From a virus: a stretch of 64,000 nt of DNA. The stretch covers positions 28,161 to 92,160 of the IMG/VR virus record IMGVR_UViG_3300027839_000006, one strand, 5' to 3'. Positions 52,344 through 60,247 of the stretch are shown here, in pieces. The notes beneath the pieces were generated by a model. It ran no database searches and was not told where the DNA came from. It saw only the letters and a program-made list of their open reading frames with translations. Within the stretch, counting starts at the first letter, position 1. Each line of letters starts with the position of its first letter. The translations under genes and the position numbers were made by a program.

Positions 52344-52664
52344 CTAACTGTCGTCTTGTTTTCGCTGATAAGACTTGCGGTGGAAGACCGCTTGGGATGC
52401 GTGTTCACGGTGCGGCTGGTGATTCCGGTCTTCTGGGATTTCCAGGGTGTACCGCATCTTCCGCTTACCCCCAACCGCTGCAAGGAGCGTTCGTAACGCA
52501 TCTGCGTGGGAACCCCCTCGACCGATGACTTTGCCTACGTCTCTGGGATCTACTGTGAGTTCGAGAATACAGGTGCGTGACCCAACGACTTCCAGACACG
52601 ATACTTGGTCTGGATAATCTACGATCTCTCGGATTACCACTTCAACTAACTGCGGCACATCCAT
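52344..52664 (-). CDS. khpA: KH-domain RNA-binding protein, KhpA (YlqC/UPF0109) family
   Basis: 'IVDYPDQV...LELTVDPRDVGKVIGRGGSHADALRTLL...RYTLEI' with an intact GXXG loop. SD GGAG. Confidence 0.88.
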   Translation of the reverse strand: MDVPQLVEVVIREIVDYPDQVSCLEVVGSRTCILELTVDPRDVGKVIGRGGSHADALRTLLAAVGGKRKMRYTLEIPEDRNHQPHREHASQAVFHRKSYQRKQDDS

Positions 52665-52750: not shown

Positions 52751-53539
52751 TTAGAGCCAAGGCCGCTCTCTCCAGATACGACGGTAACTTCTCATTTGGT
52801 GGCGGGCGTACCTGCGGGCACCTTCACCGCTGCCATTATAGATCCTAAAGGCTTCTTGAGTATCGCCTCGGCTGCGTTTGTTGCACCGCCAGAGGATATA
52901 AGCCGCCGCACGTAGGTTGGTGAGGGGTTTCCACAGATCTTCCTTGGAGGAAATGCCAAGCTCCTTCTTGAGTGTTTCAAGCCACACTCGGGGGTAGATC
53001 TGGGTTAGCCCAATCTCCCCGACTTTACCAAAAGCCTTCTGTGAGCACTTCGATTCTCGGTACACAGTCAAAGCAAGAGCTTTCGGGTTGATGTCATATT
53101 CCCCGGCAGCTTGAAGAATCAAGCTGTCGAAGTTTTCGGGTGGTTGGATCTTGCAGTGTTCCGAGAAGCGTTCCTCGACTATTTCCCCGGCAACCTCCAG
53201 ACAATCGTCTGCTTCATCACCTCCGCAGCACATTGTCGTGACGCAACAATCGGGGCACTTGGCACAGTTGTCGAGGATGTACCTCTCATGCCATGAGAGG
53301 TCTTCCCAAGAAGGATCACTTATGTCCTGCGTGGAGACCTCGGTAGCCTCGACCGACACTTCACTTGGGAAGTAGTATTCCGGTTCCTCAACTCCGAGAC
53401 TGATCGTGTACTCGCCAACATTGGAGAGTCCAGCGGTCCCACCACCGGGTTGGTGATAAGCGTTGTTGGTGTCACCCGCATCAGCGTTACCGGCACACGC
53501 ATACAATAGGAACGAGAGGCATAGCGATATAGTTCTCAT
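52751..53539 (-). CDS. Lytic transglycosylase (SLT domain) with putative lipoprotein signal and Cys-rich linker
   Basis: Catalytic 'VYRES', 'GEIGLTQI', 'PLTNLRAAAYIL' and 'AFRIYNG'. N-terminus 'MRTISLCLSFLLYAC' resembles a lipobox. Confidence 0.85.
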   Translation of the reverse strand: MRTISLCLSFLLYACAGNADAGDTNNAYHQPGGGTAGLSNVGEYTISLGVEEPEYYFPSEVSVEATEVSTQDISDPSWEDLSWHERYILDNCAKCPDCCVTTMCCGGDEADDCLEVAGEIVEERFSEHCKIQPPENFDSLILQAAGEYDINPKALALTVYRESKCSQKAFGKVGEIGLTQIYPRVWLETLKKELGISSKEDLWKPLTNLRAAAYILWRCNKRSRGDTQEAFRIYNGSGEGARRYARHQMRSYRRIWRERPWL

Positions 53540-53636
53540 CAGACTTCTCCGTGCAGCTTCCTTCAGACCCCAACCATACTCACTGGAGTTCAGAAGTTAC
53601 CTACCACCTGCTATTGAAGGAAAACCTGGGAAGCCC

Positions 53637-53939
53637 TTATGCGAGCCCCTCTTTACGAAGAGCCGCACGAAAATCTGCATCGGAGCGGGCTTCTTGACGG
53701 GTGCGGAGTCCGTAGTCACGGGGGCGAGCCCGTTGTGAACCTTGGGAGTTCCATCGCTGACCTTTACGGAATCGACCCGCTTGCTGATCGCAAGCACAGG
53801 TGACCAGATCACGGGGCGAAACCCCCGGCACCCAATCACGGTTGAAAGCACCATCCTCCCCGACTCGACGGACGTGGATAGCCAGATGTTTACGCCACTC
53901 ACGAAGAGTACGCTCTCGTTCCAATGCTGCACGACGCAT
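53637..53939 (-). CDS. Small basic hypothetical protein (~100 aa, CxC motif)
   Basis: Part of ORF 53637..54011. Start reassigned to ATG 53939 because SD AGGAG lies 8 nt upstream. Arg-rich, with 'CACDQQAGRFRK'. Confidence 0.55.
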   Translation of the reverse strand: MRRAALERERTLREWRKHLAIHVRRVGEDGAFNRDWVPGVSPRDLVTCACDQQAGRFRKGQRWNSQGSQRARPRDYGLRTRQEARSDADFRAALRKEGLA

Positions 53940-54103
53940 GGCGTCTTCTCCTATCATTTCCAGAACGGCGAACCGTTCAAGGGCTTGGGGGTCGATGCCC
54001 ACGGGCGGCACCTTGATTTTTGACGGAAGCAGCCCACCTGCTCCCTAAACCATGCACATACGTTGGTGTTCTCCTACGTGTTGAGGTTCGAGGTTATCTC
54101 CGC

Positions 54104-54142
54104 CTCTCACAACGTCTACCCCCGGTATCCGAAAGGTAACAA
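54104..54142 (-). promoter_or_regulatory. Bipartite early-type promoter motif, copy 1 (leftward)
   Basis: Minus strand TTGTTACCTTTCG-gataccgg-GGGTAGACGTTGTGAGAG, an inverted copy of 54183-54221. Confidence 0.65.
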
Positions 54143-54182
54143 TAAATCATAAAACCCAATGATTTCAAGGACTTACGAAAGT

Positions 54183-54221
54183 TTGTTACCTTTCGATCCG
54201 TCAGGGTAGACGTTGTGAGAG
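54183..54221 (+). promoter_or_regulatory. Bipartite early-type promoter motif, copy 2
   Basis: TTGTTACCTTTCG-atccgtca-GGGTAGACGTTGTGAGAG. Confidence 0.65.
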
Positions 54222-54296
54222 CGATGGCATGGACGAAGCTGGGTGTAAGCCCCGCAGGGAACGTAAGTCGGGATGCCCGAAGTGCCGTCACCTCTC
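54217..54296 (+). ncRNA. Candidate structured small RNA A (~80 nt)
   Basis: Begins about 6 nt after GGGTAG. The 5' GAGAG-C-GATGGCAT pairs with the 3' GTGCCGTC-AC-CTCTC. Internal hairpins GGG-TGTAAG-CCC and TCGGG-ATG-CCCGA. No credible ORF. Confidence 0.5.
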
Positions 54297-54309
54297 TTAC
54301 ACAGCCCCG

Positions 54310-54337
54310 GTTACTTTTCGGTACCCGGGGGTAGACG
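54310..54337 (+). promoter_or_regulatory. Bipartite early-type promoter motif, copy 3
   Basis: GTTACTTTTCG-gtacccgg-GGGTAGACG. Confidence 0.65.
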
Positions 54338-54456
54338 AAATGAGGGTAGTCCGATTCGGTCGGAAACAGGGTCCAGAGCGAAGCCACCACCGAGAGGTCT
54401 GGGGCCGAGTGTTGACGGACAGGGAGAGAGTAGGCCGCTCCCAACTACCATCATTT
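54338..54456 (+). ncRNA. Candidate structured small RNA B (~120 nt)
   Basis: The 5' AAATGA-G-GGTAGT pairs with the 3' ACTACC-A-TCATTT. Internal helices GGTCCAGA/TCTGGGGCC and GGGAG/CTCCC, hairpins GC-GAA-GC and CC-GAGA-GG. Ends just before the next motif copy. Confidence 0.5.
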
Positions 54457-54461
54457 TCCTC

Positions 54462-54489
54462 GTTACCTTTCGAGAGGCGAGGGTAGACG
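54462..54489 (+). promoter_or_regulatory. Bipartite early-type promoter motif, copy 4
   Basis: GTTACCTTTCG-agaggcga-GGGTAGACG, 31 nt before ATG 54521. Confidence 0.7.
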
Positions 54490-54520
54490 AGGCAGGACAC
54501 ACAGCGAGAGGAAACAGAAC

Positions 54521-55492
54521 ATGGGTTCATCAGACCACATCAAAGTTGCGGACCTTCACGGGATGCCCGTGCCAGACTTTTTCACCACCTGCTATTCGCT
54601 GACGGCGAGTCACTGCTGCGTGTGTGCAACCCCTCTCCGAGATGCCTTGAGCGTCCAGCTAATGATCGGCCCTACCTGCCGTAAGCGGTACGGCTACCTC
54701 GATCTCCCCGAGAACCCCAACATGCCCGTGGCGTTGGGTCTGGTCGCTGCGTTGGAGCAGCAGGACAACATCAAGCCGATGGTGGTCCGCTACCTGCTCG
54801 CCAACCGGGACGACCCCCGAATGATGTGCAACATCTTGACGGCGTTCGCCAGCGTCCACTACTCCGACAAGACGTTGGTCTTGGCGGCTTCCCCCATCAT
54901 CCGTGCGCTCGGTTACCCGAAGCTCGCTGAAAAGCTGGAGTGGGACCGCAGCGTGGTCCAGATCCGCAAGGATTGGGCAGCGAAGCGCATCGAAGTCTAC
55001 ACCCCCTACAACCGCCAGTTCGTTGTGGACCTCCACAAGCTGACTGGACAGTCTGCCGAGAAGGTCTACAACGAGCGCAAGGACCGCAGCGGCAACGTCC
55101 GTCAGGGCAAGTTCAAGTGCTGGTCTATACCGGAGCGATTCGAGGCCGATCTCATGGCCCTGATTCGGGGCTACTACGAGGGCGAGGCCATTTATGACGG
55201 TGAGGGCGTGAGCGTCATCCCCGGCCCCACAGATGCCGAGAAGGCTGTCGCCGTGAAGGTGAAGGTCTCCCTGGCTTCCCAGGTTCGCATCGAGCCTGGA
55301 AGTACCTCCCGTGCCCGAGTGGCCGTGTTCAGCCCGCCCCCGTGGGAAGACGAGGCGTGCAAGGCGTTCGTGGACGGTGTTCGGAACATCCGTGGTCGCT
55401 CGTTCGACCGTGACCGCAAGTGCTGGACGGTTCCTGCCGCTGCCTTGCAGCGAGTCGAAGACTTGAAGGCCCAACATTTCGGAGCCGAGTAA
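54521..55492 (+). CDS. DUF6011-type Zn-binding domain protein with two HARP-like domains
   Basis: 'CCVCATPLRDALSVQLMIGPTC' fits the DUF6011 pattern. 'IEVYTPYNRQFVVDL...KCWSIP' and 'FVDGVRNIRGRSFDRDRKCWTVP' resemble HARP-type domains. Confidence 0.65.
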   Translation: MGSSDHIKVADLHGMPVPDFFTTCYSLTASHCCVCATPLRDALSVQLMIGPTCRKRYGYLDLPENPNMPVALGLVAALEQQDNIKPMVVRYLLANRDDPRMMCNILTAFASVHYSDKTLVLAASPIIRALGYPKLAEKLEWDRSVVQIRKDWAAKRIEVYTPYNRQFVVDLHKLTGQSAEKVYNERKDRSGNVRQGKFKCWSIPERFEADLMALIRGYYEGEAIYDGEGVSVIPGPTDAEKAVAVKVKVSLASQVRIEPGSTSRARVAVFSPPPWEDEACKAFVDGVRNIRGRSFDRDRKCWTVPAAALQRVEDLKAQHFGAE

Positions 55493-55527
55493 GCCAGTTA
55501 CTTTCTCGGAGTAAGCCAGTTACTTTC
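55487..55527 (+). repeat. 19-bp direct repeat GAGTAAGCCAGTTACTTTC, two copies 22 bp apart
   Basis: Copies at 55487-55505 and 55509-55527. Contains the stop codon and the upstream half of the promoter motif. Confidence 0.85.
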
Positions 55528-55546
55528 CAACCCCCGAGGGTAAACG
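55519..55546 (+). promoter_or_regulatory. Bipartite early-type promoter motif, copy 5
   Basis: GTTACTTTCCA-acccccga-GGGTAAACG, 22 nt before ATG 55569. Confidence 0.7.
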
Positions 55547-55568
55547 TCGCAGAGGAAGGAATAGCACT

Positions 55569-56093
55569 ATGTCATACTACACCATCCAAGCAGCAGCAGA
55601 GGCCGCAAGACTGGGTATCCCCTGGAAGGTCCGTCTGGAATACACGGGCTACAACGACAAAAACGCCAGCGGCAACAGCTACAAGTTCTGGGAGGCCAAC
55701 GGCGTTCCAGGCTCTACGGCTGTCACCATTCGCTACGGGCGCATCGGCTCGGCAGGGCGACCGCTCCAGAAGGATTGGAGCTACTTCGTTGAGAAGTTTC
55801 CCGAGAAGCAGGCCAAGGGGTACGACTATGATTCCCGTACCCAAAGTGCCGTGGATCAGCCCGAGGCTACGCCCGTCACGACTCTGGCAGACGGCACGAT
55901 CTCCGAGATTGAGGTCAGCCAAGTGGTCGCATCGACCTTCGGCGCAGGCCCCTACGGTCAGATCCGCAGCGTTCTCCGCTCGGTGATGAGCGGTACGGAG
56001 TGCTGGTCGGCCTATGACGAACACGGCACCCTCATCATGCAGTTGCCCGAGGCTGGCGTGGAAACCATCAAGGAAGCGGTACTGGCAGTATGA
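55569..56093 (+). CDS. WGR-domain protein
   Basis: 'RLEY...NSYKFWE...VTIRYGRIGSAG...EKQAKGY' is the WGR signature. Confidence 0.8.
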   Translation: MSYYTIQAAAEAARLGIPWKVRLEYTGYNDKNASGNSYKFWEANGVPGSTAVTIRYGRIGSAGRPLQKDWSYFVEKFPEKQAKGYDYDSRTQSAVDQPEATPVTTLADGTISEIEVSQVVASTFGAGPYGQIRSVLRSVMSGTECWSAYDEHGTLIMQLPEAGVETIKEAVLAV

Positions 56094-58009
56094 GCAAGCA
56101 AGTTACCAGCCTCGCAGCCAAGCTCACCCAGGCACGGGACGCCTACTACAACGGCAAGCCCATCATGTCTGACCTTGAGTTTGACGTGATGGAAGACAAG
56201 CTGCGTAAGCTCGATCCAGGCCACGCCTTTTTCTCCAAGGTCGGCGCTGCTCCTGTGAGCGGTTGGTCCAAGGTCACGCACAAGATCCCCATGACCAGCT
56301 TGAACAAGGCCCAAGACGCCGACGATATGCGAACGTGGGGTAACGGTCGCACTGGCTACATCGCTGCCGGGGAGTTCATCTGGATTGAAAAGCTGGACGG
56401 GATCTCGATCTCACTCCGCTACGACAAGGGCATCCTGACCCAAGCTGTGACCCGTGGTGATGGCTCTGTGGGCGAAGACATTACCCGCAACGTCAAGCTA
56501 ATGAAGGGTCTCCCGAGTCAACTCGCTGTTGATCCATCATGGTCAGGCTACGTTCGTGGCGAGATTGTCTGCCTCCGGTCTGACTTCGATGCTCACTTTC
56601 CCGGTGAGTCCAACCCTCGCAACACGGCTTCCGGTACTGCCAAGCGTCAGTCCGATCCACGTCCATGCGCTCACCTGACGGTGATGCCGTTCCAGTGCCT
56701 TCCAGACACGGGAATGTACGCCACCAAGAAGGGTGAGCTTACTGCCCTGCAATCCTTGGGGTTCACCCATACCCCTCAATGGTGGACAAGGGACTCCCTC
56801 ACAGCCATCTTCGACACTTACAACGAGTATGTGGCTACGAGGCGGGACAATCTGGACTACGAGATCGATGGGCTGGTGGTCAGCCTCAACGACAACCAGA
56901 AGTGGGAAGATGCCGGGGAGAAAAACCATCGCCCCGCAGGATCAATCGCCTTCAAGTTTCCCCATGAGTCAGCCACAACCCGGCTCCAAGATATCATCTG
57001 GCAGGTCGGCAACTCCGGTCGTGTGACCCCCGTGGCCGAGTTTGATTCGGTGCCACTGGCAGGGGCCAACGTCCGTCGAGCGAGCCTCCACAACATCAGC
57101 AACATCGGACGCATCGCAAGCGAGGCAGGACACACGGCACTGCGGAAGGGTGATCTGATCATGGTCAGCCGCCGCAACGACGTGATTCCATACGTCGAAG
57201 CCCTCGTCACGCCCAAGACAAGCGGTGCTTTGTTGTCTGTACCTCCCACCGACTGCCCGTGCTGCGGCACGGCGTTGCAGATGGACGGTGAGTATCTGGT
57301 CTGCAACGGCACGATGTGTTCGGCCCAGGTGTCGGGCAGCATCAAGCGTTGGGTCAAGAAGGTCGGCATCCTCGATTGGGGGACCAGCGTGATTGACGTT
57401 CTGGTGGACTCTGAACTCATCAAAGATCCAGCAGACCTCTACAAGCTCGACGAAACCACTCTCTCGGCTGTCCAACTTTCGGGTCGGCGGGTCGGCTCTG
57501 GTGCCAAGACCATGCTCGCCAACCTCCACGCCAAGACCGATCTCCCCGTGAACGTGGTGGTCGGCTCGCTCGGCATCGACCTCATGGGTCGGTCAATGGT
57601 CAAGAAGCTGGTTGACGCTGGCTACGACACCCTGGACGCTCTGGCGACCGCTACGGTCCAAGAGTTTGCTTCGGTGCCCGGTATGGGTCAGACGAAGGCA
57701 GAAGCCTTCCATAGTGGCTTCCACTTCCGCTCTGGTCTCATCAGCAAGCTGGTGATGAACGGTATCACCATCAAGGCTCCCTCTACTGGCTTCCTCAAGG
57801 GCATGACAGTCTGCATGACAGGCTTCCGTGACGCTGCGATGCACGATGCGATTGAAGCCGCAGGCGGGACCATAAAGTCGAGCGTTGTTCGTGACCTCGA
57901 TTACTTGGTCGCCAAAGACCCAAGCTCTACAAGCGGTAAGGCCAAGAAGGCCCGTGATCAACTCACACACATCGTCAGCATCGAAGATATGCAAAGCCTC
58001 TTGAGCTAA
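56090..58009 (+). CDS. ligA: NAD+-dependent DNA ligase
   Basis: Motif I EKLDG, TRGDG, NPRN, YEIDGLVV, IAFKF, OB fold 'WQVGNSGRVTPVA' and 'RASLHN', Zn finger CPCC...C...C, HhH repeats and a C-terminal BRCT. Confidence 0.96.
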   Translation: MSKQVTSLAAKLTQARDAYYNGKPIMSDLEFDVMEDKLRKLDPGHAFFSKVGAAPVSGWSKVTHKIPMTSLNKAQDADDMRTWGNGRTGYIAAGEFIWIEKLDGISISLRYDKGILTQAVTRGDGSVGEDITRNVKLMKGLPSQLAVDPSWSGYVRGEIVCLRSDFDAHFPGESNPRNTASGTAKRQSDPRPCAHLTVMPFQCLPDTGMYATKKGELTALQSLGFTHTPQWWTRDSLTAIFDTYNEYVATRRDNLDYEIDGLVVSLNDNQKWEDAGEKNHRPAGSIAFKFPHESATTRLQDIIWQVGNSGRVTPVAEFDSVPLAGANVRRASLHNISNIGRIASEAGHTALRKGDLIMVSRRNDVIPYVEALVTPKTSGALLSVPPTDCPCCGTALQMDGEYLVCNGTMCSAQVSGSIKRWVKKVGILDWGTSVIDVLVDSELIKDPADLYKLDETTLSAVQLSGRRVGSGAKTMLANLHAKTDLPVNVVVGSLGIDLMGRSMVKKLVDAGYDTLDALATATVQEFASVPGMGQTKAEAFHSGFHFRSGLISKLVMNGITIKAPSTGFLKGMTVCMTGFRDAAMHDAIEAAGGTIKSSVVRDLDYLVAKDPSSTSGKAKKARDQLTHIVSIEDMQSLLS

Positions 58010-58287
58010 TGGCTCGCAGGTTCGCCCGCTTTGATCTTGGCGGGACGACCGTATTCTTCATGGGCAAAGTTTCACCCCAAAGTTTGCCCCTCAAACATTG
58101 AAAAACGCACTACTTCCAAGCATTTACGCTGGGTCTCTCAAATCGAAGTTATTGACGGAGCCCCTCGAACGTGATAGGGTGGTGTATGGGGTTAGGTTAG
58201 CTAACTCCCCGAAGAACCTGGGTTTTTCGGTCTTGAGCTTGATTCCGGTTCGGTCGGGGTCGTAACTATGTAAACATTGAGGAAACA

Positions 58288-59817: not shown

Positions 59818-59878
59818 AGTCAGGGGCGGTCAAGGGGCAGTGGACAGGGTAAGGTGTTCTCCCATCACGGAGTTTACC

Positions 59879-60247
59879 GTGCCCTCCGCTGGCCTCGACC
59901 TTTTCCTCAAGTCCCCTCACTTCAAGCTCCGTATCACCGAAGCCGACAGCTACGCCCAGGAGGTTGGAAGAAACCCGTGGGCGGTTCGTGTCGCCTGGGT
60001 CTCTTTGACTGAAGGTCCGTTGGTGGCTCGCCGCTACCTCAAGAAGCGACGGGCTTACCAAGACACAGCCCCGTACCAGATGTACTGCCGCCTCATCGAT
60101 GAAGGGATCTTCTCGGAAGACCCTCAAGGGGTCTACTATGAGTCTGCTCCAAAGTGGGAAGACGACGCTGGCACGATGGCATGGTTCAACACCATCATTC
60201 TGATTGCAGAAGGCATGGAGGTGCCACAAGACTTCCCTCGGCGGTAG
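59879..60247 (+). CDS. Hypothetical protein (~122 aa; start uncertain, GTG 59879 or 59840)
   Basis: ORF fills the gap between neighbours. SD GGAG precedes GTG 59879. Confidence 0.55.
   Translation: MPSAGLDLFLKSPHFKLRITEADSYAQEVGRNPWAVRVAWVSLTEGPLVARRYLKKRRAYQDTAPYQMYCRLIDEGIFSEDPQGVYYESAPKWEDDAGTMAWFNTIILIAEGMEVPQDFPRR

Follow-up and report, generated by a model that had tools for sequence, protein, structure and literature searches.

Three copies of one sequence motif stand in a row on the same strand ahead of a gene in this phage DNA, and the question they raise is what the two short segments between them are. The first-pass annotation of the 64-kb window (the whole 64,000-nt stretch of DNA analysed here) read the motif as an early promoter and the two segments, unit A (54213–54309, + strand) and unit B (54338–54461, + strand), as discrete small RNAs arranged like gene cassettes. 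We put the probability at about 0.6 that the locus is an ordinary tandem-promoter array feeding a DNA-metabolism operon, with units A and B as nested 5′ leaders of its transcripts.

The motif has the consensus GTTACYTTTCG-N8-GGGTAGACG, and five copies are present in the 64-kb window. The three + strand copies of the first-pass annotation, P1 (54185–54212), P2 (54310–54337), and P3 (54462–54489), lie exactly where it had placed them, and two further copies were absent from it, namely a perfect match on the − strand at 54113–54140 (P-left) and a degenerate + strand copy with three mismatches at 55519–55546 (copy 5). Dinucleotide shuffles returned no motif match against the five real copies, a looser core pattern recovered the same five sites where 0.16 were expected, and a weight matrix built from the five copies found no additional site anywhere in the window. 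Every copy is intergenic and faces the gene that follows it. Each consists of two conserved blocks (11 and 9 bases) separated by eight variable bases, an architecture with the look of −35 and −10 elements.

P-left and P1 are arranged back-to-back and share the extended identity GGGTAGACGTTGTGAGAG as inverted repeats. Between their divergent −35 elements lies an AT-rich spacer of 44 bp (54141–54184; 27% G+C), which may act like an UP element or, should the hub double as an origin, like an unwinding element. At the other end of the array, the ATG start codon at 54521 follows the last base of P3 at a distance of 31 nt, and the interval contains the ribosome-binding site GAGAGGAAAC. Copy 5 occupies the 76-nt gap ahead of a WGR-domain gene and stops 22 nt short of the ATG at 55569, again with a ribosome-binding site (GAGGAAGGA) between the two. 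This region carries a 22-nt tandem duplication (55487–55527), in which two identical 19-nt direct repeats (GAGTAAGCCAGTTACTTTC) follow each other at a 22-nt interval, and which duplicates the stop-codon region of the upstream DUF6011 gene together with the −35 half of copy 5. Because of this duplication, copy 5 has two −35 elements, only the second of which is correctly spaced from GGGTAA. The duplication looks like a recent slippage event.

The motif is best described as a predicted SigB/SigF-type promoter. The promoter reading of the first-pass annotation is supported by the bipartite motif with its variable spacer, the intergenic placement and co-orientation of the copies, and the SigF/SigB-type geometry GTTA-N15-GGGTA, which all five copies share; for these reasons we accept the motif as a promoter and infer its activity. 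The SigF consensus of Mycobacterium smegmatis is GTTT-N15/16-GGGTA, with a range of GTTT-N14-19-GGGTA (PMC4694148), and the SigB consensus of Bacillus subtilis is GTTTAA-N12-17-GGGTAT (PMC9847131). Relative to the former, the phage motif has a single mismatch (A instead of T as the fourth −35 base), and it falls within the range of the latter. The motif thus fits a promoter recognised by a group 3 sigma factor, a class assignment drawn from its letters: GTT at −35, GGGTA at −10, and the spacing between them are common to both. It differs from SigB/SigF promoters in the fourth base and in its conservation, which extends far longer (11 + 9 bases). Such extended conservation is usual for phage promoter sets. 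No sigma-70-type promoter was detected in the array, where the lone weak match falls within the AT-rich spacer, and no sigma domain was found among the window ORFs scanned. Such promoters may depend on an alternative sigma factor of the host or on a phage-encoded one, and the label “early” is therefore an assumption about their timing. We set an operator or iteron reading of the motif aside, since its conserved blocks are not symmetric to each other and its middle is variable.

The gene context places this hub at a boundary between gene blocks. The window is phage-like, with a + strand run of giant ORFs (up to 5090 aa) that have baseplate matches, followed by a short − strand block, the hub, and the + strand DNA-metabolism genes. 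Within the − strand block, the probable first leftward gene (53637–53939, − strand; 100 aa) starts at ATG 53939 behind the ribosome-binding site AGGAG, and an alternative start at GTG 54011 would give 124 aa. Downstream of it are an SLT transglycosylase gene and a gene for a KhpA/KhpB-type KH-domain protein of 106 aa (52344–52664, − strand; PF13083, E 6e-18). Judged from this domain match, the KhpA-like product is a cellular-type RNA-binding protein that the phage encodes in the leftward operon predicted to be fed by the hub. The leader of this operon (~170 nt) contains a four-codon mini-ORF at 54044–54058 on the − strand (ATG TGC ATG GTT TAG), 10 nt after AGGAG; as a whole, the leader folds no better than shuffles (z −0.56). 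In the rightward direction, the first gene (54521–55492, + strand) encodes a protein of 323 aa that was assigned a DUF6011 motif by homology and domain match. It is followed by the WGR-domain gene (55569–56093, + strand) behind copy 5, the NAD-dependent DNA ligase gene (56090–58009, + strand), and an SNF2 helicase gene. Two gaps farther along, 58010–58287 (278 nt) and 59818–60203 (386 nt), contain neither a long ORF nor a motif copy.

In the reading we prefer, a single promoter class, used five times and by its sequence recognised by a SigB/SigF-type sigma factor, would drive a divergent hub. P-left would fire leftward into the operon that includes the transglycosylase and the KH-domain protein, and P1–P3 would fire rightward into one DNA-metabolism operon (DUF6011, WGR, NAD-dependent ligase, and onward), whose transcription copy 5 would re-initiate ahead of the second gene. 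Units A and B would not be genes of their own; they would form nested 5′ leaders on transcripts initiated at P1 and P2, with or without cis-acting signals. Tandem promoters separated by more than 35 bp occur frequently and give higher output with no occlusion (PMC8830795). The + strand copies are spaced 125 and 152 nt, with no terminator-like site and no homologue-bearing ORF between them; they are too widely spaced to occlude one another, so several polymerases could load at once and the operon would be transcribed more strongly.

Phage T7 provides the classic phage likeness for such an array. Its early promoters A1, A2, and A3, reported by Dunn and Studier in 1983, are said to lie ~125 nt apart ahead of gene 0.3. 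The hub is similar in having three same-strand, presumably strong promoters 125–150 nt apart, with no gene or terminator between them, all predicted to feed the first gene of an operon at a gene-block boundary. In contrast to T7, its consensus is GTTA-N15-GGGTA and not sigma-70-like, and a fourth copy would fire in the opposite direction from the same hub. Further likenesses are the rrn P1–P2 pair and the native tandem promoters of Escherichia coli (PMC8830795).

By folding, the two units do not stand out from shuffled sequence. Both are non-coding; unit A (97 nt) is probably a 5′ leader segment of P1 transcripts, and unit B (124 nt) is probably a leader segment of P1 and P2 transcripts alike. 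Their G+C content (61% and 58%) exceeds that of most intergenic gaps in the window (45–59%), and the units are therefore not typical spacer DNA. They share no repeat family beyond the motif itself, consistent with the earlier statement that they are unrelated in sequence. The claim that each unit folds end to end is only weakly borne out: the minimum free energy (MFE) folds do pair 5′ with 3′ ends, but not above shuffles when neutral boundaries are used, with each unit taken as the full interval between successive motif copies. With neutral boundaries, the fold z-scores were −1.09 for unit A and −0.64 for unit B; with the boundaries of the first-pass annotation (54217–54296 and 54338–54456), they were −1.82 and −1.50, and the opposite strands gave values of ~0. 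The duplex between the 5′ and 3′ ends had p values of 0.11–0.31 at neutral ends and of 0.004–0.03 only with hand-picked ends. Folding was thus essentially no better than that of shuffled controls (z −0.6 to −1.8), an outcome that the first-pass annotation itself would count against its small RNAs. The sequence TTGTGAGAG, which it had used as the 5′ arm of the unit A closing stem, is part of the extended promoter repeat, given that P-left and P1 share GGGTAGACGTTGTGAGAG.

The whole leader (54213–54560) likewise folds no better than shuffles (z −0.54). In this fold, unit B keeps a closed domain, and unit A loses its outer stem to alternative base pairs. The terminal CUCUCU of unit A (54291–54296) pairs there with GAGAGG (54505–54510), the ribosome-binding site ahead of the DUF6011 gene. 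In this predicted structure, the pairing could be an anti-Shine-Dalgarno switch for P1 transcripts only, or chance between short simple sequences. An 11-mer, CGGGATGCCCG, which forms a small hairpin, occurs both in unit A (54269–54279) and at 54559–54569, 40 nt into the DUF6011 gene, and this recurrence may also be chance.

Transcripts from P1 and P2 should run on into the DUF6011 gene, because no terminator-like site (a stem-loop followed by a T run) was found in 53400–55800, a region for which shuffles gave a mean of 2.0. P2 lies within a G+C-rich palindrome, CCCCGGTTAC...GGTACCCGGGG (54305–54329), which reaches −16.2 kcal/mol as RNA and has no U run. In hosts that terminate without a U run, this predicted hairpin could be a transcription stop. 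It is the only strong one, with nothing comparable at the other four copies, and the hairpins around all five promoters taken together are not above chance (joint p 0.17). A terminator–promoter cassette, in which a hairpin would bracket every promoter, was rejected on this result, as P2 alone stands out. Cassettes of a related kind are the PeSLs of T4-type phages, where terminator and early promoter motifs flank small variable genes (PMC2839356, PMC4122927). The hub resembles them in that a repeated promoter motif brackets short unrelated segments and P2 carries a stem-loop. However, PeSLs flank real ORFs with a terminator stem-loop, whereas the hub segments contain no credible ORF, and a strong hairpin is present at one of the five hub copies and a U run at none. 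Lacking terminator stem-loops and ORFs, the hub is not a PeSL-type cassette.

Searches for known RNAs gave no family for the units. Rfam, which the first-pass annotation had proposed as a check, yielded no match in the window at gathering thresholds, and the best sub-threshold matches of a permissive scan (E 0.48–7.9) all correspond to the inverted repeat of the divergent promoters. ARAGORN found no tRNA, and no other part of the window is significantly complementary to either unit.

It is unlikely that units A and B are independent, unrelated, trans-acting small RNAs, each transcribed from its own SigF-type promoter in a cassette array. Their 3′ ends would have to arise by U-run-less termination at hairpins overlapping P2 and P3 or by a nuclease (e.g., RNase III) acting in the closing stems, and the RNAs might serve as decoy, sponge, or anti-defence RNAs, perhaps with the KhpA-like protein encoded ~1.5 kb away. 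A full motif copy, i.e., a predicted promoter, does precede each unit, the MFE folds close the 5′ end on the 3′ end, the P2 hairpin is strong (−16.2 kcal/mol), the units are richer in G+C than most intergenic gaps, no gap ORF searched has a homologue, and a KhpA/KhpB-type KH protein (E 6e-18) is encoded nearby. Yet the lack of a terminator-like site in 53400–55800 leaves these RNAs without a 3′ end set by an intrinsic terminator, no Rfam family matches them, and their z-scores and neutral-boundary end pairing are not significantly better than those of shuffled sequence. Moreover, unit A does not keep its outer stem in the full-leader fold, promoter hairpins across the five copies are at chance level, and no complementary target was found within the window. 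The two discrete small RNAs proposed at first thus gain no positive support from terminators, Rfam or tRNA matches, or above-shuffle folding. Some of the same observations could point instead to cis-acting leader elements for processive antitermination, mRNA stability or processing, or translation control, a possibility that we also consider improbable. With no terminator, the units would be transcribed as part of the mRNA, and transcripts from P1, P2, and P3 would behave differently; in the translation version, the terminal CCUCUCU of unit A would have two alternative partners, the GAGAG at the 5′ end of the same unit and the GAGAGG that serves the first gene as ribosome-binding site. In favor of such elements, the whole-leader fold pairs the CUCUCU at the end of unit A with the region of the ribosome-binding site near 54505 and not with the unit A 5′ end, unit B remains a closed domain, and the G+C content is again higher than in most gaps. 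Against them, the whole leader folds like its shuffles, GAGAG and CUCUC are short and simple sequences, the units match no known leader or riboswitch family, and P3, the promoter nearest to the gene, yields a transcript without either unit. The put RNAs of phage HK022 are structured leaders that act in processive antitermination. RNAs of phage phiKZ have been detected by dRNA-seq (PMC8244752). Both resemble the hub units in being short non-coding segments directly downstream of phage promoters, but they are defined by mapped transcripts or conserved structure, whereas the hub units have no Rfam match. Several features count against the tandem-leader reading as well, including the high G+C content of the units, the end pairing at hand-picked ends (p 0.004–0.03), the closed domain of unit B, and the −16.2 kcal/mol hairpin positioned exactly at the end of unit A.

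A protein-coding role for the gaps is extremely unlikely. On the + strand, ORFs of 39, 85, and 109 aa can be read mechanically, as can ORFs of 116, 77, and 63 aa on the − strand; their codon scores are intermediate between those of coding and off-frame segments. One of them, the 39-aa ORF at 54215–54334 (or 36 aa from ATG 54224), has a codon score of ~0.0, which is above 98% of off-frame segments but within the lowest 2–5% of real coding segments. Its sole RBS-like sequence is a GAGAG only 2 nt from the ATG, and the ORF crosses P2, ending at the TAG of the P2 GGGTAG. No homologue was found for this ORF among 1.84 billion representative proteins, nor for the 85-aa and 116-aa ORFs among 5.8 billion clustered proteins. 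The earlier statement that the gaps hold no credible ORF therefore stands as far as it can be tested, and a conserved small ORF, which would have spoken against the small RNAs, was sought by homology and not found. That the hub doubles as a transcription-activated replication origin, with an AT-rich unwinding element flanked by promoters, is very improbable too, if slightly less so. The primary origin of T7, located at tandem promoters, is the analogue for such an arrangement. The 44-bp spacer of 27% G+C between divergent promoters and the DNA-metabolism genes directly downstream would suit an origin, but the GC-skew profile makes no turn at 54 kb, there are no iterons apart from the promoter motif, and AT-rich DNA upstream of the −35 element is usual for strong promoters.

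Relatives of the locus itself were not recovered from the databases searched. The DUF6011 protein is on record on 12 contigs, the longest of 208,680 bp, and the phage genome should therefore be at least ~209 kb. Proteins 95%, 70%, and 53% identical to it exist on short contigs. GenBank phages contained no related DNA by blastn, and GTDB genomes contained none by protein and pattern searches. In IMG/VR, the exact promoter pattern returned nothing and a loosened pattern returned single chance matches only; searches with the DUF6011 protein, singly and as an alignment, gave no related DNA for the units, and the neighbouring SLT gene found nothing. The DUF6011 loci on JGI metagenome contigs were only ~30% identical, and none had the motif or a comparable gap ahead of the gene. 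The ligase is 54–56% identical to those on three huge-phage fragments in IMG/VR, which CheckV rates as 9–22% complete, implying genomes of ~450 kb. These fragments have no other gene in common with the window and no motif copy, which suggests, as judged from gene content, that the NAD-dependent ligase may move between huge phages.

The tandem arrangement of the hub is ordinary, and its SigF/SigB-like consensus is unusual for a phage. Only if the gaps do encode discrete RNAs would the locus add a new kind of phage RNA locus. The five near-identical sites provide a clean promoter consensus for an uncultivated huge phage (at least ~209 kb), and the hub lies where its block of virion genes meets its block of DNA-metabolism genes. 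The form of the consensus suggests that transcription of the hub genes may depend on an alternative sigma factor or on one encoded by the phage itself, and the consensus is useful for annotating the remaining genome and for guessing the host.
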